20,682 bases of DNA, taken from UHGV virus genome UHGV-0140731, one strand, 5' to 3'. The notes below the pieces were generated by a model, which had not been told where the DNA came from, did not search any database, and worked only from the letters and a program-made list of their open reading frames with translations. This document shows positions 9,239-20,682 of the stretch, piece after piece (the stretch's first letter is position 1; every line of letters begins with the position of its first letter). Source of the DNA: a virus. A program made the translations under genes and the position numbers.

Positions 9239-9319
9239 GATCTTATCGCCTACCGTTTCGGTTTAAGTTTTTCTTCCAGTTTCTCCAACAGGAAAAACGC
9301 ATAGGATTCAGTAAGCCTT

Positions 9320-10201
9320 TCAGCGTCCTGAATCGGTATACCCCCATACAAAACCAGGTTGGACACTAAGGTCTGATAGCTTTTCAATCCCCACCTGTGG
9401 AATGAAGTCGGTAGCCCGAAAGGGCACCCACAGACGGGTATACGCACCCTCTGTGGACTCCTTTTTATCCTGATTTGGGCATTTATGCGGCGGGAGACGA
9501 AGACGCATTTCACCTTTATCGATGTAGCACGGTAAACCATGTTCGAGCTTTTCATGAGCCAGTCGGATGTGTGCCGCCAGCTTCATAAATTCAGTATCAA
9601 TGGCCATCCGTTTAATCGTTTCATAACGACGCTCAGCCTGATCTTCACGAGTACCGCTAACATCGTTATAAAGCTCACACTGATAAGCGAATTCCCAAAA
9701 ACGCAAATCAACGATCGCTTCTTTGAATTCCGCGTCATCTTCAGGTGGCAATGCTGCACGGCGCATCTCCAGCATTTCCATTGCCCAACCATCAAGCGGC
9801 ACGATACGCCATTGATAAGGTACTCCCTCTACAGACACCTCAATATCGTCAATGAAAGGTTCCACTTCCAGGACCTGGATATCTTCAGCCAGAGCATTCA
9901 TATCGCAATCGTAATAATGCTCTTTACCGCAATGTTTACAGGTGTAGGTGAATGTCTCGACCGGTGTTTCACGGGAGCCGGTAAATATCCACCATAACGC
10001 GGTAATCCGGTCCTGCGCCGTCCATGTCAGGGGATCATGTTTCACGGGTTCAGCCAGCAAGGCTTTTAAATACGCCGTTGTCTGTTGTTCTTGTTCCTCC
10101 GGTGTTATCGAGTTGAAACGCATCGCATCAGCAATATTTGGCTGACGGAACTGGATCAATTCAGTTGGCCGCGATGGTAGCGGGAAAAGGGGTAAAAGCA
10201 T
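9320..10201 (-). CDS. Phage structural-module protein, unknown function (contains CxxC...C cluster)
   Basis: 293-codon ORF; ATG 10199-10201 with AAGGAG 5-6 nt upstream; CKHCGKEHYYDC motif. No family assigned. Confidence 0.5.
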   Translation of the reverse strand: MLLPLFPLPSRPTELIQFRQPNIADAMRFNSITPEEQEQQTTAYLKALLAEPVKHDPLTWTAQDRITALWWIFTGSRETPVETFTYTCKHCGKEHYYDCDMNALAEDIQVLEVEPFIDDIEVSVEGVPYQWRIVPLDGWAMEMLEMRRAALPPEDDAEFKEAIVDLRFWEFAYQCELYNDVSGTREDQAERRYETIKRMAIDTEFMKLAAHIRLAHEKLEHGLPCYIDKGEMRLRLPPHKCPNQDKKESTEGAYTRLWVPFRATDFIPQVGIEKLSDLSVQPGFVWGYTDSGR

Positions 10202-10215
10202 CCTTGCTCCTTAAT

Positions 10216-10827
10216 TCAAAGAGAAAAACTAAAGCCCAGAAGGGAAGCCAAAGAACTTGAGGATTGGTTAAACGTGCTGTGCAATGCGAAGGTCATTGGG
10301 AATGACTTAAATTCCGTAACCTGATCCCGCGCATAGGTGACATCGCCGGTAGTGACAGGGAATACAGTCATCTCATTTTCCAGTTTGGTTAAGCCGGAAG
10401 ACAGCAACCGATAAATACGCACATTGAGCAAATATTTAGACGGTATATTCCCGGTACCGTCTGGATTAATCACCCGACTTTTTGCCGTCTTAAACCAGTC
10501 CAAAACGAGGCCATCAACGGTATCCCTGACCATCATTGTTATCTGCCCAGGCGAACGCTCCGTTGGTTGAAGGATATTCCCTCCGCCGATTTTAATCGTT
10601 TCATATTCGATGCTGTAATCGTGGTAGGTAATGTCTTTGGCAAAGAAGTCTGCCCCCTCCAGTCCATCAACTTCGACAGAGAACTGCCATCCTTGCGCGA
10701 ACAACATTTTGTTCATGATGATTGACGTCAGCTTACCAATTTCCCGCTCACCAACGCCGGAGCCAAATAATGTCGTCGTTAATGCCGAAGATACATAAGA
10801 CTTTACTGAAGCAACATTAAGCCCCAT
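10216..10827 (-). CDS. Phage structural-module protein, unknown function
   Basis: 203-codon ORF; ATG 10825-10827 preceded by GGGAG; tightly packed with neighbours. Confidence 0.5.
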   Translation of the reverse strand: MGLNVASVKSYVSSALTTTLFGSGVGEREIGKLTSIIMNKMLFAQGWQFSVEVDGLEGADFFAKDITYHDYSIEYETIKIGGGNILQPTERSPGQITMMVRDTVDGLVLDWFKTAKSRVINPDGTGNIPSKYLLNVRIYRLLSSGLTKLENEMTVFPVTTGDVTYARDQVTEFKSFPMTFALHSTFNQSSSSLASLLGFSFSL

Positions 10828-10837
10828 ATCAGCTCCC

Positions 10838-11428
<591 letters not shown>

Positions 11429-11557
11429 TTAACCGATTCTACGAGTTGTCATTTGTTACCGGTCAGTCTACACATTTCAGATGCTGCGTTAAAAAATTCA
11501 AGTACTTCAAGTAGCACATCGTCATCAACACCCAGCCCCAAGATACGGTGATAAAAT

Positions 11558-12535
11558 TCAAGCCTTAAGAGGCTTTGTGTATGTTCGTGTAATCCAACCA
11601 GTAATAAACTCATCCCCTGATTTAACCTGCACGTAAAGCCATTGACGATCTTTCTTATCTAAAATAGCAACAATTGTGTTTTTGCCAATGCATTCAATCA
11701 CTTCACTATTTAAAGAAGGGCTGACATGTAATCTTACGTTATCACCAGTTATAAACCTAAAACCATTGAGATCTTCCCACTTAATTTCTGTGTTTTCTTT
11801 AATTAATTTTTGTTTTGATATTGGTGCATCCTCATATAGGGATACAGAATATGATTCTGTCTTGTGTATTTGCGATAAGATTTGTTCTTTTGCATAATCA
11901 GCAATGGCACCAAGCAACACTTCTGTTAAAAACCACATAATAATAAACTGAAGCGGGTGAGGGAGCGCCTTAAATGAGTCAATAAACGTCGAACTGGATT
12001 TATTTAATCCTTTGTCTTGAACATCACTTTCGTTGTGAGATGTTTCAATAGCACCTTCAACATAAGCCTGTGCAATTGATGAAAGACCTTGCTCCATTGT
12101 TCTATTAAATAGAGATGTCTTTTTTTCAATATATTGATTTTCTTGTTTTTTTATAATATCTTTTGTTAAATCATCGTAAGTTATATATTCTCGTAAATTT
12201 TTAAGTGTAGCCTCCATACTTTCCAAGCCAGCTTGTTTATTAAAAACTTCTATCTGGCTTTGTAATGACAAAGATTTTTCCGACTGTTTCTGAAAATTTT
12301 CAACATACTTACGGAAAAGATGGTTTATCTCATTCGTTTTTAGTGATGTGTTAAATTTTTTTTGAAGATAATTATCTAATATTTTTTGAGATGTTTTTTC
12401 CAAAACTATATGCAATAGATTTTGTTGCAAAAAATCAAGCGGGGTAGTAAGACCACCCAAACTCACTGATTTTGCTAAATTACTTAACTCGTTATATTTG
12501 GAGCTATTAATACTTGCCATCTTATTCGCCATCAT
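11558..12535 (-). CDS. AT-rich cargo gene: membrane protein with central TM helix and C-terminal SH3b-like domain
   Basis: 325-codon ORF in strongly AT-rich DNA; hydrophobic segment LQFIIMWFLTEVLLGAIADYA; C-terminal ~65 aa resemble bacterial SH3 domains (GDNVRLHVSPSLNSEVIECIGKNTIVAILDKKDRQWLYVQVKSGDEFITGWI). Exact start ambiguous (MMANKMAS). Confidence 0.55.
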   Translation of the reverse strand: MMANKMASINSSKYNELSNLAKSVSLGGLTTPLDFLQQNLLHIVLEKTSQKILDNYLQKKFNTSLKTNEINHLFRKYVENFQKQSEKSLSLQSQIEVFNKQAGLESMEATLKNLREYITYDDLTKDIIKKQENQYIEKKTSLFNRTMEQGLSSIAQAYVEGAIETSHNESDVQDKGLNKSSSTFIDSFKALPHPLQFIIMWFLTEVLLGAIADYAKEQILSQIHKTESYSVSLYEDAPISKQKLIKENTEIKWEDLNGFRFITGDNVRLHVSPSLNSEVIECIGKNTIVAILDKKDRQWLYVQVKSGDEFITGWITRTYTKPLKA

Positions 12536-13028
12536 ATTGTTTTAAACACCCGTCTTTTTTAGCTTCCTTGTAAATACTTGAAATACCATTAAGAGAGAAT
12601 GATGTGATTCGACGCGATCCGATATATACATCCATGTTTTTTTCTTTTGTGGCTGACGCTGACTTCCAAAAAGAATACCATTCCCTACGATTTGGAGCAG
12701 TGTTTTGCGTACCAATATTAAAGCTATCCGGACCAACAATTAAGGTAATTACATCAGCTTTACGAGAAATTGTATCGCGTGTAGAAAAATCAGCATTCTC
12801 TTTCCCTCCGCTTACATACAAATTTCTTCCAGCGATATGATCTTCGGAACCTTCCCTTGCTCCAGCATCACAAGAAAAGTTAATTGTATAGCCATCGTCA
12901 TTGGCTGCAGAAATTTCTCTCCACCCTTGCTCACCTCCTACCGTCCAATCGGTAGAACTTGCCATTGCTGATAATGGCAAGAAAGAGGGCATTAATAAAA
13001 AGCTATACAATGACTTATACAATTTCAT
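12522..13028 (-). CDS. AT-rich cargo gene: secreted/periplasmic protein (signal peptide), unknown function
   Basis: 168-codon ORF; ATG 13026-13028 with AAGGA upstream; N-terminal signal-peptide-like sequence MKLYKSLYSFLLMPSFLPLSAMA. Confidence 0.55.
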   Translation of the reverse strand: MKLYKSLYSFLLMPSFLPLSAMASSTDWTVGGEQGWREISAANDDGYTINFSCDAGAREGSEDHIAGRNLYVSGGKENADFSTRDTISRKADVITLIVGPDSFNIGTQNTAPNRREWYSFWKSASATKEKNMDVYIGSRRITSFSLNGISSIYKEAKKDGCLKQYDGE

Positions 13029-13116
13029 ATTTTTATCCTTTTGGTTTTAGGTATTACAGGCATAGTCCATATTGTTAGATCCACTATGCCCAGAGAATTT
13101 AATATTATTCATTAAA

Positions 13117-13608
13117 TTATGGAGCTACACCCGGCCCCCTAGCTCGTTCTTCAAGCGTACCCTGTACGTTTTGATGGCGCATTCCCGGGGCATTTCTGAT
13201 TGAGTCAATGCCATTTCTTCCAACATCTTCTTTATTGACGGCATTGCTCGCCACCAGCACCCCCCAGCTAGGGATAGCAAAATCAGGAGCGGTTTCGCAT
13301 GCCTTTACCATATAATCGAAAGTGCTTCGATTGATCTCGTTCGCGTCCGGATTTAACAGGCGAGAATATTGATATTTAGCATTTTCGTTGGTTGCGACTT
13401 TATACAGTTCTTGCTGCACCATCGCTTCAGAAAGTTTAAGGCGTTTCATGTCTGAAAGTAACTTCTTGCGCATGGATTCGTCTTGGCTGACAGCAAAGCC
13501 GTAAACGTGCCCAAGGTATTTCGTATAATCGGTACAAATCTCCTTTACACTTGATGCTGCATTAACAGTCCCAGCCATAAATAATAACGGTAGTAATAGT
13601 TTTCTCAT
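13117..13608 (-). CDS. Secreted protein with a Sit-related C-terminal tail (chimeric)
   Basis: Start placed at ATG 13606-13608 (MRKLLLPLLFMAGTVNA, GGTGAGG upstream) rather than the longer track start. The last ~45 aa (SNAVNKEDVGRNGIDSIRNAPGMRHQNVQGTLEERARG) are homologous to a segment of the Sit-like protein (GNAVGVNDLVNKFMNGRGMRREVVQGTLEERARG). Confidence 0.55.
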   Translation of the reverse strand: MRKLLLPLLFMAGTVNAASSVKEICTDYTKYLGHVYGFAVSQDESMRKKLLSDMKRLKLSEAMVQQELYKVATNENAKYQYSRLLNPDANEINRSTFDYMVKACETAPDFAIPSWGVLVASNAVNKEDVGRNGIDSIRNAPGMRHQNVQGTLEERARGPGVAP

Positions 13609-13704
13609 TATAACCTCACCTGCCTTATAACCCATTTAGGGTACATATTTTCGCCTTTAAAAAAAAGAGGTTATTAGATCCATTTGTGTATTTATCATAC
13701 AATT

Positions 13705-13721
13705 AATGCTCTAATAAATTT
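13705..13721. promoter_or_regulatory. P1 C1-repressor-type operator (AATGCTCTAATAAATTT)
   Basis: One mismatch to the P1 C1 operator consensus ATTGCTCTAATAAATTT as I recall it; located between divergent transcription units, upstream of the immI-like promoter. Confidence 0.55.
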
Positions 13722-13759
13722 GTATTTTTAAGTCGCGAATGCTATCTTTTCGCATCATA

Positions 13760-13788
13760 TTGACCTTTTAATCGTTCAGGCTTATAGT
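13760..13788 (+). promoter_or_regulatory. sigma70 promoter candidate (TTGACC-17-TATAGT) for the c4/icd/ant-like operon
   Basis: -35 TTGACC at 13760-13765, 17-nt spacer, -10 TATAGT at 13783-13788, read directly from the sequence. Confidence 0.55.
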
Positions 13789-13919
13789 TCCGCCGTCGTA
13801 GCAAATTCTGCGACCGGGTTTAGCAGCCTGAATACTTACGCGGACAACCGCAGATTTCCGATATTGCGGTATTTTTGTGTCCGTAAACCACGTTACGCCC
13901 GAATTATGGTGGGGCGTGA

Positions 13920-13997
13920 TGGGGAGGCTTCGGCCTGCTGGTTTCGTAAGTGCCAGTCTGCTAACCCCGTCACGTCCTGCCACCTGTTTAGCAGCGG
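13920..13997 (+). ncRNA. Candidate c4-like antisense RNA (immI-type translational repressor)
   Basis: Contains a UUCG-tetraloop hairpin (aggc-ttcg-gcct, 13926-13937) and a 7-bp stem (ctgctaa 13958-13964 / ttagcag 13988-13994). Two short elements, cggcct (13931-13936) and tcgtaagt (13944-13951), are complementary to adjacent target sequence 14016-14028 (acttacgaggccg) covering the icd Shine-Dalgarno. Boundaries are approximate. Confidence 0.4.
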
Positions 13998-14033
13998 GTC
14001 GCAGGTTGTTTATCAACTTACGAGGCCGTAACT

Positions 14034-14255
14034 ATGGTTAATGCCAATCCGTGCGCACGCCAAGAATTCATCTGGCGTTTCTATTCCTGTAAAAAACACC
14101 ACTATCACTTCGTTATCGCAGCAACAGAAGACGAAGCACGCTCTCAATTGCCTGATGGCCCCTGCATTTTTACTGCCCGTTTTTCAACTAACTCGCGCAA
14201 TTCACTTAGTTACTGGAGCCTCCCCTTCTCTGCCGACGTTCAGGGGGGTTTATGA
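14034..14255 (+). CDS. Icd-like small protein (P1 immI 'interference with cell division' analogue), translationally coupled to ant
   Basis: 73-codon ORF; GAGG 8 nt upstream of ATG 14034; stop overlaps the ant start as ATGA (14252-14255). Size and position match P1 icd as I recall it. Confidence 0.55.
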   Translation: MVNANPCARQEFIWRFYSCKKHHYHFVIAATEDEARSQLPDGPCIFTARFSTNSRNSLSYWSLPFSADVQGGL

Positions 14256-15289
14256 AAAAACCTCTCGTCACCCGTAATGAAATAGCCGAAGCGATCGCCC
14301 TGCATACAACCTGTATGCCGACACGGGAGATCCCCGGCGCAATTGCCAACTATTTCATGATAACCAGGCGTTTTTATACCCGAACAGATAAGGCTGTGAT
14401 CAACAGGCTACTGATAGCCGAGATCAGGGATTATTTGATTGAACAAGGACGTCTACGTTACGCAACAGTGGCAGCAGAAATGAGAAAGGAGGCGCGCAGA
14501 ATGACCGGTAATAATTTGAATGTTGAAAAACCAGCACCTGTTGCTTCAGCTACGCCAGCACCAGCCCTGAATGTCATCCCCAACACCGGAGACACAATCG
14601 ACAGCCAAACATTGTTGAAGATGGTCAATGAGGCACGGAAATTATGTAGCGAAAAACCAGTTCGCAACAATGATTTCATTGCCAGAGTTAAGGATGAGCT
14701 TGAAGGAGAAACCTACGAAATTTTCGTAGGTCAAAAAAACGGCGCAGAAATAGATATTATAACCATGACCTACAAACAAGCCCTGCGAGTTGCCGCGCGC
14801 GAGTCAAAAGCGGTCCGCCGTTCGCTGATCGACAAACTAGAAGAATTGCAGCAGGCAAACTCCCCTACCCCATCGATCCCCCAAACATTACCAGAAGCCC
14901 TACGCCTGGCTGCCGAGTTGGCAGAACAGAAATTGCAGCTGGAACAACAGCTGGTGGCCGCAGCCCCTAAAGTCGATTTTGCCGACCGGGTATCAGTGGC
15001 TAATGGAATCCTGATCGGGAACTTTGCAAAGGTCGTTGGACTTAAGCAAAACGCCCTTTTCTCATGGTTGCGCCAGAACGGCATTCTCATGGCTTTTGGT
15101 GCGCGCAAAAACGTACCGCGCCAGCAGTACATTAACGCCGGGTATTTCACGGTGAAAGAAGTGGTGCTGGATGATGAAAATGGCTACCAGATACGGCTGA
15201 CGCCCCAATTAACGGGTAAAGGCCAGCAGTGGTTAACTCGCAAGCTACTTGATGCTGGCTTGTTAAAACCAGTGGCGTCCTTGTCTTAA
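14252..15289 (+). CDS. ant: Phage antirepressor Ant (C-terminal KilAC/ANT domain)
   Basis: 345-codon ORF; C-terminal ~140 aa (IPQTLPEALRLAAELAEQK...GNFAKVVGL...GKGQQWLTRKLLDAGLL) form the ANT/KilAC domain and are paralogous to the C-terminus of the downstream KilA. Confidence 0.8.
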   Translation: MKKPLVTRNEIAEAIALHTTCMPTREIPGAIANYFMITRRFYTRTDKAVINRLLIAEIRDYLIEQGRLRYATVAAEMRKEARRMTGNNLNVEKPAPVASATPAPALNVIPNTGDTIDSQTLLKMVNEARKLCSEKPVRNNDFIARVKDELEGETYEIFVGQKNGAEIDIITMTYKQALRVAARESKAVRRSLIDKLEELQQANSPTPSIPQTLPEALRLAAELAEQKLQLEQQLVAAAPKVDFADRVSVANGILIGNFAKVVGLKQNALFSWLRQNGILMAFGARKNVPRQQYINAGYFTVKEVVLDDENGYQIRLTPQLTGKGQQWLTRKLLDAGLLKPVASLS

Positions 15290-15698
15290 CGTATTCAGAC
15301 CAAGATTTGCCATAAATTACAGGCATGTGTACGATATGCCCAACCCTGTTTTTCAGGGGAGGCGCAACGTTATGCGGGGGTTATGAACTCCTGGATGCGT
15401 AGCCTCCAGACAGAAAAAACCCTCGCCACAACGTTGCATGGAGGCAACCAGCGAGGGCATTCCTTATGTCTGATCAACAAGAGGATAGCCGCAAGCAGTT
15501 GCTGTTGCAAGTGTGCGGAGCTTCGTAATGACTCTTCAAAAAGCTTGCAAGTGGATTGTGACCAACATCATTGTTCCTGTCATCATCGGAGCGTCAAGTT
15601 CTGTGTTGGCATCAGTGATTGCCTCACTTCTCCACATTGCATAACAACATTGGAGGGCGTTAGTTCCGCAGTGTAACAGCAGCGCGTTGCGCCCGAAC

Positions 15699-15734
15699 AG
15701 GCCACAGGGTAAAACCTGTGGCCTTTTTCGTTTT
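15699..15734 (+). terminator. Rho-independent terminator
   Basis: aggccacagg-gtaaaa-cctgtggcct (10-bp GC-rich stem) followed by ttttcgtttt. Confidence 0.65.
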
Positions 15735-15843
15735 AGCCAGCCACAAATCCACATTGAAAAACGCCTTATACAAAAAAACCTGCCAGCGAACTGACAGGTT
15801 TCTGAGCAGATCGACCAACCCGATCTGGATCGGACTGGAAAAA

Positions 15844-15860
15844 TTTGCTCTAATAAATTT
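15844..15860. promoter_or_regulatory. P1 C1-repressor-type operator (TTTGCTCTAATAAATTT) upstream of kilA
   Basis: Shares TGCTCTAATAAATTT exactly with the site at 13705-13721; lies ~70 bp upstream of the kilA start and overlaps a weak candidate promoter (TTGCTC-17-TAAGTG). Confidence 0.55.
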
Positions 15861-15929
15861 CGTTTTCTAAGTGCAAAGAATCACCATTTCGAGCTGGTGA
15901 TTGAAGGTTGATGCAAATTTGGAGAAAAA

Positions 15930-16730
15930 ATGCAACAAACATTCAATGCGGATATGAATATATCAAACCTTCATCAAAATGTCGATCCTTCAACCACTCT
16001 GCCCGTTATTTGTGGTGTTGAAATTACGACCGACCGCGCTGGCCGTTACAACCTTAATGCTCTACACAGAGCGAGCGGACTCGGTGCCCATAAAGCGCCA
16101 GCTCAATGGCTAAGAACGCAGTCAGCCAAACAGCTCATCGAAGAGCTTGAAAAAGAAACTATGCAGAATTGCATAGTTTCGTTCGAAGGTCGTGGCGGCG
16201 GCACTTTTGCCCATGAATTGCTCGCTGTGGAATACGCAGGCTGGATTTCTCCCGCATTTCGGCTGAAGGTAAACCAGACATTTATCGACTATCGAGCCGG
16301 AAGATTACAACCTGCTATTCCGCAGAGTCTCCCTGAAGCTCTCCGTTTGGCTGCCGACCTGGCAGAGCAAAAGCAACGGCTGGAGCAAAAAATGCTTATG
16401 GATGCACCTAAAGTCGAATTCGCCGAACGCGTTGCTACCGCCAGCGGGGTTCTAATCGGCAACTATGCCAAAGTGCTCGGCCTGGGCCAAAACTATCTCT
16501 TCACCTGGTTGCGTGATAACGGAATTCTGATCGCAACCGGTGAACGCAGGAACGTCCCCAAACAAGAATACATATCCCGTGGGTACTTCACCCTCAAAGA
16601 AACCGTGATCGATACAAGCAACGGAAGCAGGATTTCTTTCACGACTCGTATAACCGGCAAAGGTCAGCAGTGGCTAATGAAGCGATTGCTTGATGCTGGT
16701 GTGCTGGTACCTGTCGCGGCCACGCGCTAA
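15930..16730 (+). CDS. kilA: KilA (KilA-N domain plus KilAC/ANT C-terminal domain)
   Basis: 266-codon ORF with GGAG 5 nt upstream; C-terminal domain paralogous to Ant; size and position (operator, then kilA, then a 281-codon gene) match the P1 lytic replicon as I recall it. Confidence 0.7.
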   Translation: MQQTFNADMNISNLHQNVDPSTTLPVICGVEITTDRAGRYNLNALHRASGLGAHKAPAQWLRTQSAKQLIEELEKETMQNCIVSFEGRGGGTFAHELLAVEYAGWISPAFRLKVNQTFIDYRAGRLQPAIPQSLPEALRLAADLAEQKQRLEQKMLMDAPKVEFAERVATASGVLIGNYAKVLGLGQNYLFTWLRDNGILIATGERRNVPKQEYISRGYFTLKETVIDTSNGSRISFTTRITGKGQQWLMKRLLDAGVLVPVAATR

Positions 16731-16759
16731 CAGACGTAGTAAGAACCACCAGCATTGTA

Positions 16760-17605
16760 ATGCTGGCTAAAGTCACTTTCCTGAGCTGTATAACGATGAG
16801 CGATTTTACTTTTTCTGGCTATGAATTGGCCTGCTTTGTAACACACTCCGGTCTATCCCGTAGCGCCGGGCATATCCTGTCGCAATGTGCAAATCTCGCG
16901 GCAACAACCAGTGAATACTTCATTCACAAGCCTCACCGCATGATTGCGGCAGAAACTGGTTATAGCCAATCAACCGTCGTTCGCGCATTCCGTGAAGCTG
17001 TAAACAAAGGAATCCTGTCGGTAGAGATTGTTATCGGCGAGCACCGTGAACGTCGCGCTAACCTGTACCGGTTTACACCATCCTTTTTGGCCTTTGCTCA
17101 ACAAGCCAAAAATGCGCTAATTGAAAGCAAATTAAAGATCTCTTCAGCCGCAACCAAGGTTAAAGCAGTTCTCGCTAAGACATTGGCTTTATTTGATTTT
17201 TTATCCACACCCCCATGTCAAAATGATACCCCCTCCCCCTGTCAGGATGACGTGGCAATAAAGAATAAGAAGTCACAAGTTAAAAAAACAAAAAGATCAG
17301 TTTCCGGCGGTGCCGGAACGACCAGACTCAAAAAATTGACTTCATGGATCGCTGAGGCAAAAGCAAAGGCTGACAATCTGCGGTTATCCAAAAAACGCGC
17401 TCAAAAACATGAGTTCAAGCAGAAAGTAGAGGCGGCAGCGCGGAAATATGCTTACCTGAAGAACAAGCGTTCTCCTGATATTGGCGGGGTATCAAACTTC
17501 GATAATCTGCCGCATTGCATGACGGTAAACGAAGCTCTTAATGCGGTTTTAGCCAAAAATAAAGATAACGAACAATGGGGTATACCGGCAGGATTCAGAG
17601 GGTGA
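16760..17605 (+). CDS. repL: RepL-like lytic replication protein (HTH-containing)
   Basis: 281-codon ORF immediately after kilA; helix-turn-helix-like segment AAETGYSQSTVVRAFREAVNKGIL. Assignment is by context and size; weak Shine-Dalgarno, start uncertain (ATG 16760 or 16796). Confidence 0.5.
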   Translation: MLAKVTFLSCITMSDFTFSGYELACFVTHSGLSRSAGHILSQCANLAATTSEYFIHKPHRMIAAETGYSQSTVVRAFREAVNKGILSVEIVIGEHRERRANLYRFTPSFLAFAQQAKNALIESKLKISSAATKVKAVLAKTLALFDFLSTPPCQNDTPSPCQDDVAIKNKKSQVKKTKRSVSGGAGTTRLKKLTSWIAEAKAKADNLRLSKKRAQKHEFKQKVEAAARKYAYLKNKRSPDIGGVSNFDNLPHCMTVNEALNAVLAKNKDNEQWGIPAGFRG

Positions 17606-17689
17606 TAGATTGCTCTAATCTGGAGTCACCTGGCGTTTTCAGTTTGAGGTCGGAGATGCAATCTGATTTTTTACAGTTAGCGATCGCTT

Positions 17690-17902
17690 TTGCAGCGATA
17701 TGTTTGTATTGGCTTCTGTGTATACATGATCAGCCGAAAAATGCTTGTTGATATCGACCGCAAAGAACGAGCAGAGGAGATCTTAGTATGGATTTTCTTT
17801 GGCGCGGTCTGGCCATTAGGGATCATGTTTGCTGCAACATTTCTTCTGATGTGGATATTCACCCTTCCAGGTGATTTCTATAGAAAAAAAGCCAGACATT
17901 GA
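17690..17902 (+). CDS. Small hydrophobic protein (possible two-TM membrane protein), hypothetical
   Basis: ORF with hydrophobic stretches (ILVWIFFGAVWPLGIMFAATFLLMWIF); no clear Shine-Dalgarno; could start at internal ATGs. Confidence 0.3.
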   Translation: MQRYVCIGFCVYMISRKMLVDIDRKERAEEILVWIFFGAVWPLGIMFAATFLLMWIFTLPGDFYRKKARH

Positions 17903-18099
17903 TACAATCGTTGCGGGTGCTTGAGGCTATCTGCTTCAGGCATTACCCGAAAAGCAGATAGAAGAAAGCCCCAGATAACATTACGCGTCCTGCAAGACGC
18001 TTAACATTAATCTGAGGCCAATTTCATGCTAGACACATGTAGGTTAGCCTCTTACGTGCCGAAAGGCACGGAGAAGCAGGCTATTGTTAACACCAAGCT

Positions 18100-19600
18100 G
18101 TAATGTCCCCTTTGAACCATTCTAAAATGTCCCCAGACAATTCTCTGGGGGATTTTTCATGATCAAAGAGACTGTTACGATGAGTCATAAGGAACTCCAC
18201 CGACTTCAGATTATTCAGGAACAAGCTGCGGCACGCATTGGCATTTCTATTCGGCAGGTTAAACGTCTGGTGCAACGGTATAGAAATGAAGGGCCTTCTG
18301 GTCTGGTTTCCCACCGACGTGGAAAGCGTCCTAATAATTCCTTTTCTACTGAATTCAGAGCAACAGTAATTTCACTCCTCAAAGGCCGTTACGCTGATTT
18401 TGGACCTACGTTTGCGTGCGAAAAATTGCGCGAGATACACGGTTTATCTTTATCCGTTGAAACTCTCAGAAAGTGGATGATAGAAGAGGGGTTATGGCGT
18501 GAACGCCGTCGTAAAATTGCCCGTATATATCAACGCCGCATGCGACGACCATCTTACGGTGAACTGATCCAGATTGATGGCTCACCTCATGACTGGTTTG
18601 AAAATCGAGGCCCCAGATGTACACTGATCGTTTTCATTGATGATGCCACCAGTGCGTTGATGGCGTTGCGTTTTGTGCCTGCTGAAACAACCCGGGCTTA
18701 CATGGAAACCCTCCGGGGTTACCTTAATGATCATGGCGTACCGCTCGCTCTCTACTCTGATAGACACAGTATATTCAGGGTAAATAACCCAGAGCGGGAA
18801 GGTGAGCTGACCCAGTTCACTCGTGCGATAAAGACACTGGGCATCGAGCCAATCCATGCCAACAGCCCGCAGGCAAAAGGGCGGGTAGAGCGCGCCAATC
18901 AGACACTACAGGACAGGCTGGTCAAAGAAATGCGGCTTCAGAATATCAGTGATATTGAAACAGCAAATGCATGGTTGCCGACCTTTATTGAAGCCTATAA
19001 CAACCGGTTCGCTACGTCGCCTCGTACTACTGATAATGCTCATCTTGATGTGCACCATTCTGAAGAGGAACTGGGTTATATCTTCAGCCTACAGGCGAAG
19101 CGCGTTCTGTCTAAAAATCTCACTTTCCAGTACAAAAGCAGTGCGTTTCAGGTACGCAGTGAGGGCCGGGGATATCGACTTAGGCATTCGGTTGTTACTG
19201 TATGCGAGAACTTTGACGGTGAAATTAACGTTCTGTATGACGGGAAAGCGCTGGGCTGGGAAAAGTATGTTGATGGCCCGGAGCCTATACCACCGGATGA
19301 TGAAAAGAGTGTCCATGAACGAGTGGATAATGCCCGTATTGATTTACGCTCAAAATACTATGTTAAACCTAAAGCTGACCATCCCTGGCTTACGCGCCGA
19401 ACGCAAAGTCATCAGCAAGTTAAGCCCCCGAAGTTACCTAAAAAGAAGCCTGATCCCGATAAAAAAGATTGAAACCAAGATCGATTCGGTTGAGTGCATA
19501 TCCATTCATAGGGTAGATTCTTAAGTCGCGTTTCTGGTGTTCATTTTCGGGTGGTTTGTTACTTGTTTTACCGGGGATATGCCAGAAACGCGCTGAGTCA
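18100..19600 (+). mobile_element. Insertion sequence carrying a DDE transposase (ends not defined)
   Basis: Single transposase ORF flanked by non-coding DNA; no clean terminal inverted repeats could be defined by eye, so boundaries are approximate. Confidence 0.3.
18159..19472 (+). CDS. DDE transposase (rve/integrase-core type; IS481- or ISNCY-like)
   Basis: 437-codon ORF with N-terminal HTH (IGISIRQVKRLVQRY) and catalytic-core motifs (LIQIDGS..., LYSDRHSIF, SPQAKGRVERANQTLQDRL); GGGGGA upstream of the ATG. Confidence 0.8.
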   Translation: MIKETVTMSHKELHRLQIIQEQAAARIGISIRQVKRLVQRYRNEGPSGLVSHRRGKRPNNSFSTEFRATVISLLKGRYADFGPTFACEKLREIHGLSLSVETLRKWMIEEGLWRERRRKIARIYQRRMRRPSYGELIQIDGSPHDWFENRGPRCTLIVFIDDATSALMALRFVPAETTRAYMETLRGYLNDHGVPLALYSDRHSIFRVNNPEREGELTQFTRAIKTLGIEPIHANSPQAKGRVERANQTLQDRLVKEMRLQNISDIETANAWLPTFIEAYNNRFATSPRTTDNAHLDVHHSEEELGYIFSLQAKRVLSKNLTFQYKSSAFQVRSEGRGYRLRHSVVTVCENFDGEINVLYDGKALGWEKYVDGPEPIPPDDEKSVHERVDNARIDLRSKYYVKPKADHPWLTRRTQSHQQVKPPKLPKKKPDPDKKD

Positions 19601-19908
19601 GTCTGGGCGGTGCGCGTAATGAGGCGTTATGGTAAATAGCCTATGCTAATGTCCGCTAAGAGCAAGAAGCGGAAGTTGGCAGTTTTGTGGACTGTCCCCA
19701 CAAAAGTGACTACAGAAATAGTTGCAATTCATAATTGATCATGGGTTGTCAGTTAAACTCGTGGCGATTTAAATAGACTAATTGGGAGGGCGTCCATTAC
19801 TTATATCTTGTAATGTTAACTATCAGAAATGATACAAAGATAATATGTCTTTAAAGAAAAGGCTGATGGCGAAAAGTGGCCCGATGAGGGCCACAATACG
19901 GCTGTCAC

Positions 19909-20241
19909 TTAGACGTAAATATCAATGGTGCCAGCGGTATTTGTATCGTCTTTTTTCTCTTCTTTTTTATCAGGCTGAACTGTCGCGTCTTCATTCTTTT
20001 TCTCTGCCTGCTGCCTTAACAACTGCTCCAGTTGAGCCCAGAGGCTTTCAATTTGCTTCTGTACCAATGCAGCCATTTCTTTTTTCTGCTGTGTCGTCAT
20101 CCCCTCTTCCGATGAGATTTTCCCAAGCTTTTCAGTCAGCACCTGAATTTGTCTTGTGATTTTGGCTATTTCTGATGTTCCTTCCGGGGCGGAGTTGTTT
20201 GAAATAACGGTTGAGGTATTTCCCTGAATTGTGACAGACAT
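19909..20241 (-). CDS. flxA: FlxA-like protein
   Basis: 110-codon ORF (MSVTIQGNTSTVISNNSAPEG...IDIYV) with AAGGAG upstream; size and sequence character match E. coli FlxA as I recall it; preceded by a near-consensus sigma28 promoter. Confidence 0.6.
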   Translation of the reverse strand: MSVTIQGNTSTVISNNSAPEGTSEIAKITRQIQVLTEKLGKISSEEGMTTQQKKEMAALVQKQIESLWAQLEQLLRQQAEKKNEDATVQPDKKEEKKDDTNTAGTIDIYV

Positions 20242-20264
20242 AGATTTCTCCTTTTAAAAAAGCA

Positions 20265-20291
20265 CTATCGGCATGCACAAAAAAATCTTTA
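20265..20291 (-). promoter_or_regulatory. sigma28 (FliA) promoter candidate for the flxA-like gene
   Basis: Minus strand reads TAAAGATT-N11-GCCGATAG, against the consensus TAAAGTTT-N11-GCCGATAA. Confidence 0.55.
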
Positions 20292-20372
20292 ATCGTATTT
20301 CTTGTGTCATTAATTGTTTGATGTTCAGATTGTTTTCCTCGCGGGCTGGCGCGCCTCAGAAAGTAAAGCTTG

Positions 20373-20400
20373 TTGACAGGGGTAAACGTTCGGCAATAAT
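20373..20400 (+). promoter_or_regulatory. sigma70 promoter candidate (TTGACA-16-AATAAT), divergent from flxA
   Basis: Perfect -35 hexamer at 20373-20378 and -10-like AATAAT at 20395-20400; the downstream target is unknown because the contig ends. Confidence 0.35.
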
Positions 20401-20654
20401 TTTCTGCCGCATGCGGGTGTTGCATAAAACGTGTTACGTTCCTTTATCGACAGGTCAGGTCACCGCTCACCCGCCGACGAGAAAGCAACACTGACATGCT
20501 AAAGCAAAAAATAGATGAATAAGTTGAGTTGTGCATATGTAGCCTGACCGTCACAAAGTATATGGTGTCTGTACCAGTAAGATGATGGCCGGACTCTTTA
20601 AAAACGAGCTGACCTGCACAATACAGGATGGACTTAGCAATGGCTGCTCCTGGC

Positions 20655-20682
20655 CTGTCTCTTATACACATCTCCGAGCCCA
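20655..20682. other. Illumina Nextera / Tn5 mosaic-end adapter sequence (contig-end artefact)
   Basis: Exact match to CTGTCTCTTATACACATCTCCGAGCCCA, the Nextera read-through adapter. Confidence 0.9.

Follow-up and report, generated by a model that had tools for sequence, protein, structure and literature searches.

The stretch of DNA analysed here (the window, 20,682 nt of the virus genome UHGV-0140731) carries the gene flxA near its right end, within the following set of features.

19909..20241, minus strand: flxA coding sequence, 110 aa plus stop codon (ORF list, Pfam and K-12 identity)
20284..20291, minus strand: -35 element of a FliA (sigma-28) promoter, TAAAGATT (consensus TAAAGTTT; motif scan and published site)
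20265..20272, minus strand: -10 element of the same promoter, GCCGATAG (consensus GCCGATAA), an 11-nt spacer away from the -35 element
20248..20253, minus strand: Shine-Dalgarno sequence AAGGAG, read from the sequence 6 nt before the flxA ATG
19872..19894, minus strand: probable intrinsic terminator of flxA (7-bp G+C-rich stem, 5-nt loop, TTTT)
20444..20654, minus strand: ydfV ORF, 3' part only because the contig ends within it; same strand as flxA, upstream of it

The encoded protein agrees residue for residue with FlxA of E. coli K-12 MG1655 (b1566; 100% identity) and matches the Pfam family FlxA (PF14282) over residues 7-101 with 53.8 bits (E = 2.3e-14), against a curated cut-off of 26.3 bits. 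A preliminary description made from the letters alone had pointed to a FlxA-like ORF of 110 aa with its promoter at 19909-20291, coordinates that prove exact; given this match, the gene, as judged from its sequence, is flxA proper and more than flxA-like. At the DNA level, window positions 19288-20654 are 99.85% identical to MG1655 (2 mismatches in 1367 nt), and neither mismatch falls in flxA or its promoter. The order ydfW-flxA-ydfV is common to the window and K-12, where flxA has its home in the cryptic prophage Qin (dicC-ydfX-ydfW-flxA-ydfV-relB-relE-hokD). The two loci share an identical protein, promoter, ribosome-binding site and terminator, and differ in what lies to the left: homology to the K-12 copy begins only at window position 19288, the left two-thirds of a transposase gene and a hok 5' remnant having been lost from K-12, whereas the window keeps a full left transposon end and adjoins P1-like DNA rather than Qin genes. 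Among 5426 complete E. coli genomes the flxA locus was found in 1204, with annotated flxA beside ydfV.

Read on the minus strand from 20291 to 20265, the promoter is TAAAGATT-tttttgtgcat-GCCGATAG, followed by tgcttttttaaAAGGAGaaatctATG; the full motif, TAAAGATTTTTTTGTGCATGCCGATAG, agrees with the FliA consensus TAAAGTTT-N11-GCCGATAA at 14 of 16 positions, has the canonical 11-nt spacer and ends 23 nt before the flxA ATG. The near-consensus FliA promoter of the preliminary description was therefore correct to the letter. No other match to the consensus at two or fewer mismatches occurs on either strand of the 20.7-kb window. From dinucleotide shuffles of the window, 0.02 such matches are expected by chance, and two of 100 shuffles contained any; at three or fewer mismatches the expectation rises to 0.19, with at least one match in 18 of 100 shuffled windows. 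That looser figure, together with the presence of ydfV upstream on the same strand, would allow the motif to be a chance match and flxA to be transcribed from elsewhere, with read-through transcription of ydfV or a sigma-70 promoter as conceivable sources. We consider this extremely improbable, given the expectation of 0.02 at the two mismatches observed and the placement of the motif 23 nt before the start codon. For K-12, moreover, it is already refuted by published data. Fitzgerald et al. 2014 (PMC4183435) report TAAAGATTTTTTTGTGCATGCCGATAGT as the FliA ChIP-seq site for flxA, a 28-mer that corresponds letter for letter to window positions 20291-20264, so the motif is identical to a site bound by FliA in vivo; in the same study the normalised expression of flxA was 280 in the wild type and 2 in a fliA mutant.

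Two further publications bear on FliA dependence. Zhao et al. 2007 (PMC1935009) found flxA down 28.4-fold in a fliA deletion and up 8.2-fold five minutes after FliA induction. The first description of the gene (Ide & Kutsukake 1997, Gene 199:19-23) announces in its title both its dependence on FliA and its dispensability for motility. The link between flxA and FliA is thus known from these three studies. FliA control is demonstrated here by way of sequence identity to the K-12 locus on which the experiments were done; the same dependence would carry over from that identity to the strain of the window. RNA polymerase with the flagellar sigma factor FliA would bind TAAAGATT-N11-GCCGATAG and would transcribe flxA as a class 3 (late) gene of the flagellar regulon, so that FlxA would be made only after completion of the hook-basal body and export of the anti-sigma factor FlgM. 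The class 3 (FliA-dependent) promoters of tar, fliC and flgMN have the same architecture as that of flxA. Unlike the genes behind those promoters, flxA is, going by the 1997 title, not needed for motility, and it sits on a mobile element rather than in a flagellar gene cluster.

Is the promoter a stable part of the gene? Every copy of the transposon described below carries the same flxA promoter. Beyond these copies, our search of 5.8 billion proteins returned mostly near-identical E. coli entries, the only informative ones being P0102 and P0118 (85% and 65% identity to FlxA), and a scan with the single protein across 185,579 species genomes found two E. coli loci only and did not reach distant relatives. 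The diverged homologues available for comparison come from a chromosomal island of Enterobacter (85% identity to FlxA), a metagenomic contig (65%), and Citrobacter IncF and E. coli IncI plasmids (57-58%). Their upstream DNA has otherwise diverged, yet all of them retain TAAAG and GCCGATA and have the end of the -10 element 23-26 nt from the ATG; when the upstream regions of five diverged homologues are aligned, TGCCGATA is the sole contiguous block without variation. Down to 57% identity, no upstream blocks other than the two hexamer cores are conserved, which speaks further against a chance motif. Retention of the promoter cores in otherwise diverged upstream DNA argues that the coupling of the flxA cassette to FliA is maintained by selection and is not an accident, as far as can be told from sequence comparison.

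Four loci carry flxA or FlxA-like genes with no transposase. One (L008) is a small mobilisable 6.5-kb plasmid of Edwardsiella tarda in which only the right part, flxA-ydfV-relBE, is present; the others are on Citrobacter and E. coli plasmids (L014, L015) and on the Enterobacter chromosome (L017). Some of these transposase-less genes adjoin IS5 or IS3 elements and integrases. Such occurrences indicate that the flxA cassette spreads by several routes.

Between promoter and gene, the usual sigma-28 geometry would place the transcript start near 20257, so that the leader would be about 16 nt long. Downstream, the putative terminator is a hairpin, GTGGCCC-TCATC-GGGCCAC, followed by TTTT, 14 nt past the flxA stop codon. 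The 53-nt stretch that holds it (19860-19912) folds with -17.3 kcal/mol (z = -2.4). A consensus terminator scan did not call this hairpin, because its T run has only 4 T. On the other side of the promoter, ydfV looks doubtful as a real gene. Its ORF (6745-7050 in L001) straddles the boundary between the cargo and the relBE arm of the transposon and its start is separated by only 24 bp from that of relB, which runs on the other strand; YdfV had no family match in Pfam, NCBIfam or PADLOC. A sigma-70-type match, TTGACA-16-AATAAT (11 of 12 positions), lies between flxA and ydfV at 20373-20400 on the plus strand, pointing away from flxA and toward relB, about 375 bp further.

To the left of flxA the window holds the features of a transposon and of the locus into which it is inserted.

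18159..19472, plus strand: transposase of the ISEsa1 family (IS1202 family, ISNCY), 437 aa (NF033594, Pfam)
18085..18114, plus strand: left terminal inverted repeat, TGTTAACACCAAGCTGTAATGTCCCCTTTG (by comparison with full-length copies)
18070..18084, plus strand: left copy of a 15-bp target-site duplication, GGAGAAGCAGGCTAT, from the hok ribosome-binding site to the AT of the ATG
17915..18085, plus strand: 5' regulatory part of a hok/sok locus (Rfam sok RF01794, 115.9 bits), cut by the transposon
19678..20646, no strand assigned: cargo module of 969 bp, comprising the flxA cassette and the larger part of the ydfV ORF (comparison of the flxA version with an ncr version)

The transposase scored 456 bits against NCBIfam NF033594 (cut-off 250) and contains Pfam HTH and rve_3 domains; the ydfW of K-12 is its last 49 codons. 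In complete E. coli genomes the transposase and flxA occur at about 1:1 (1166 and 1204, respectively), with a median of one copy. Full copies of the transposon measure 3.3 kb and have the order IRL-tnp-flxA-ydfV-relB-relE-IRR. They start with TGTTAACACCAAGCTGTAATGTCCCCTTTG and end with the inverse of TGTCAACGCAAAGCAGAAGTGTCACCTTCG, matching at 22 of 30 positions; this match was taken from the full copies L002, L006, L007, L009-L012 and L016, the right repeat of the window's copy lying beyond the contig end. The window holds the left 2.6 kb only, its transposon being incomplete since the contig ends inside ydfV. We also considered a 1.6-kb insertion sequence with an internal right repeat and rejected it: the best internal match to the left repeat reaches 18 of 30 positions, against 22 of 30 at the true end. 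Compared with a 446-aa plasmid version, the transposase of the window has a 27-bp in-frame deletion that removes nine residues (QESINRHIT) from its N-terminal helix-turn-helix, and this loss from the DNA-binding region may have left the window copy immobile. By these sequence features, flxA resides in a transposon of the ISEsa1 family (IS1202 family) that is normally found in a Qin-type lambdoid prophage.

Full-length copies (among them L002 12086-15359, L009, L010, L011 and L016) were found in five contexts, all in the same orientation and all at the ribosome-binding site and start codon of different hok-family genes. Each of these five independent insertions has its own direct duplication of 15-16 bp.

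Qin-type prophages and phage PhiR42_1: duplication GGAGAAGCAGGCTAT
IncI-gamma/K1 plasmids: duplication TGGAGGGGCTATGAT
IncK2/Z plasmid: duplication TGGAGGGGCTGCGATG
Enterobacter IncF plasmid: duplication GGAGAAGAAGGCCAT
Phytobacter IncF plasmid: duplication GGAGAAGTCAGCTAT

For the IncI insertion, a 400-nt query in which the two flanks were joined across a single copy of the duplication was matched over its full length, at 100%, by ColIb-P9 and many other plasmids and so identifies an exact empty site. In line with an insertion of this kind, two pieces of the chromosomal locus, 3.27 kb apart and overlapping by about 15 bp, line up with the hok locus of a P1-like plasmid. Recombination between hok loci was considered as a source of the repeated 15-mers and rejected, given that the duplications are specific to each replicon and match its own hok variant, and that the exact empty site exists.

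The Phytobacter plasmid pMRY16-398_1 (L016, 716-13558) carries a 12,843-bp version of the element, also at a hok start codon. Its 1620-bp left arm is 99.8% identical to that of the flxA version and its 712-bp right arm, which includes relBE, 98.7%. Between these arms, 10.5 kb with genes for resistance to nickel (ncrABCY) and chromate (chrBA) and other genes replaces the 969-bp flxA-ydfV segment. The boundaries of the cargo module were obtained by comparing the arms of the flxA and ncr versions and converting them to window coordinates. Since the ncr and chr genes occupy its place between the same arms, flxA is interchangeable cargo.

Taken together, these comparisons favour one main reading, to which we assign a probability of roughly 0.95: the flxA of E. 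coli is a self-contained cassette, consisting of a sigma-28 promoter, a short leader, a gene of 110 codons and a hairpin terminator, and is carried as cargo by an ISEsa1-family transposon. In most E. coli, as these comparisons show, the transposon occupies hokD within a lambdoid prophage of the Qin type. The anatomy of the carrier, namely an ISEsa1-type element of 3.3 kb (or 12.8 kb with metal resistance) that inserts in one orientation at hok Shine-Dalgarno and start sites and generates duplications of 15-16 bp, is very likely right as deduced from the aligned copies.

How does this element compare with described relatives? Members of the ISEsa1 subgroup of the IS1202 family (Microb Genom 2023, PMC10132070) have the same ISNCY/IS1202-type transposase and imperfect terminal inverted repeats, and orientation-specific insertion next to a conserved target is likewise known for the ISAjo2 group, at dif sites (PMC10132070). 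The same paper gives ISEsa1, as listed in ISfinder, as 1609 bp with terminal repeats matching at 15 of 22 positions and 'no TSD detected'. Unlike that listed form, the mobile unit found here is 3.3 kb long (12.8 kb with the metal cargo), ends on the right with relBE, inserts at the starts of hok-family genes and duplicates 15-16 bp of its target. The 'no TSD' entry is consistent with a right end placed short of the true one. The relBE-hokD locus of K-12 (relBEF) shares relB, relE and hokD, and their order, with the arrangement described here, in both cases to the right of flxA-ydfV. From the aligned loci, relBE and hokD appear to be adjacent because a transposon with relBE landed on a hok start codon, leaving the hok upstream regulatory region 3.3 kb away.

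The remainder of the window is of a different origin. Positions 1845-18084 are 96-98% identical to P1-like phage-plasmids and phage P1, whereas 17912-20654 match chromosomal Qin-type prophage DNA at 99.6%. Rfam finds the C4 antisense RNA of P1 immunity and its a1/b1 target at 13782-13834 and 13902-13987, upstream of icd/ant-like ORFs, which confirms at the sequence level that the left 18 kb are P1-like. The first 1.8-2.0 kb (1 to about 2028) are unmatched by the P1-like plasmids and phages that match the rest at 97%. This is the tail-fibre and tail-fibre-assembly region, with ORFs at 205-711 and 722-1195 and the 3' part of 1236-2804, all on the minus strand, and is probably a host-range variable segment.

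Two places in the contig bear on how the neighbourhood of flxA should be read. Of 30 sites that distinguish the P1-type from the chromosome-type sequence, all are P1-type up to 17975 and all chromosome-type from 18021 onward, so that the switch falls within 17976-18020, 45 bp over which the two hok/sok loci do not differ. The other place is the contig's right end:

20655..20682, no strand: the last 28 bases, CTGTCTCTTATACACATCTCCGAGCCCA, adapter read-through and not biological

We take CTGTCTCTTATACACATCTCCGAGCCCA to be the Nextera/Tn5 mosaic-end adapter of Illumina libraries. Homology to K-12 and to ET490 ends at 20654, and a listed ORF at 20444-20671 (minus strand), starting MCIRDRPG, is partly translated adapter. 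The contig is certainly unreliable at 20655-20682 and probably so at 17976-18020. Because it ends in a Nextera adapter, the adjacency of P1-like DNA and flxA may be an assembly chimera: it is either a short-read misjoin at the 45-bp repeat or a rare real recombination.

If real, the recombination would have joined a plasmid hok/sok locus to the chromosomal Qin-type locus and placed flxA on a P1-like phage-plasmid. The contig does run continuously from P1-like DNA into the transposon, and the position of the switch in a stretch shared by both loci suits homologous exchange, though a 45-bp exact repeat is also a typical site of short-read misassembly. A further 232 bp of homology (91%), on the other side and within the hok coding sequence, make a double crossover mechanically possible, and the same transposon is present on IncI, IncK and IncF plasmids. 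On those plasmids, however, a duplication specific to each insertion marks the element's arrival as transposition and not recombination. P1-like plasmids have an intact hok gene at the point where the window enters the transposon; none of the matched P1-like plasmids or phages extends past 18084, and flxA was not found at this position in any of them. A search of the 5426 complete E. coli genomes and 72,556 plasmids found no place covering at least 80% of a 901-bp junction query, and the untrimmed adapter 2.6 kb after the junction is a sign of a weakly supported assembly path. We thus regard a real recombinant as rather unlikely; if it did exist, flxA would be a transducible phage-plasmid gene. 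This contig is no basis for claiming flxA as a gene of a P1-like phage. The tie that the preliminary description drew between a gene of the mobile element and the host flagellar regulon is real and was already published, in the ChIP-seq and expression data cited above. The phage element it placed next to the gene is P1-like, which is not the usual home of flxA, and the junction between the two may be an assembly artefact.

What FlxA does was approached through its predicted structure. An AlphaFold model built from the single sequence (mean pLDDT 71) has disorder at residues 1-19, helices at 20-44 and 50-85 (pLDDT > 90) and disorder again at 86-110, so FlxA is modelled as a helical hairpin with disordered N- and C-termini. 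Searches of the PDB gave nothing below E = 0.1 by sequence and, with Foldseek and the model, nothing below E = 0.6. A weak match at rank 5 to a CdsO/FliJ-like fold was not interpreted, a helical hairpin being generic. The protein had no match among NCBIfam families and PADLOC defence models, and the Pfam, PDB sequence and fold searches revealed no enzymatic or DNA-binding signature.

FlgK, FliD, FliC, FlgL and FlgM are known late substrates of the flagellar export apparatus. In an exoproteome table (PMC6391000), FlxA appears with these five among the enriched E. coli proteins. This listing, the class 3 timing and the disordered N-terminus tentatively suggest that FlxA is itself a late substrate of flagellar type III export, or a partner of such a substrate, a suggestion that we regard as unlikely to hold. 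The same table (PMC6391000) also lists CheY and isocitrate lyase, which are cytoplasmic, and their presence weakens the export hypothesis: lysis combined with higher expression of the flagellar regulon would explain FlxA in the exoproteome equally well. The literature searched contained no report of FlxA secretion.

Alternatively, FlxA could be an accessory of the mobile element whose action, confined to flagellated cells, would serve the element itself; interference with flagellum-dependent phages and a tuning of the host's motility programme are examples of what it might do. The contexts in which the gene was found are all mobile (the prophage transposon, conjugative plasmids, and islands with integrases and transposases), its promoter travels with it, and the 1997 title declares it dispensable for motility, for which reason we do not class FlxA as a flagellar component. 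Against such a role stand the lack of a PADLOC match and of any enzymatic or DNA-binding signature, and the literature searched offered no experimental hint of it; we judge it quite improbable.

The flxA cassette as transposon cargo, the reading we prefer, has consequences of different weight. For flagellar biology there is nothing new in it, as the link between flxA and FliA was published in 1997 and has been confirmed genome-wide. A sigma-28 promoter that travels with its gene does make the function of FlxA a cleaner question. In the literature searched, no transposon that targets hok or carries relBE came up, which is not proof of absence, and we put it at somewhat below even odds that the placement of flxA and relBE as cargo of a hok-targeting ISEsa1-type transposon is both true and hitherto undescribed. 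If true, it would explain why ISfinder lists a 1.6-kb ISEsa1 with no duplication, how the classical relBE-hokD (relBEF) operon originated, and why flxA and its sigma-28 promoter occur on prophages and on IncI, IncK and IncF plasmids in several genera. If also undescribed, the hok-targeting transposon would give the ISEsa1 subgroup a target and a true length, and relBE-hokD an origin.
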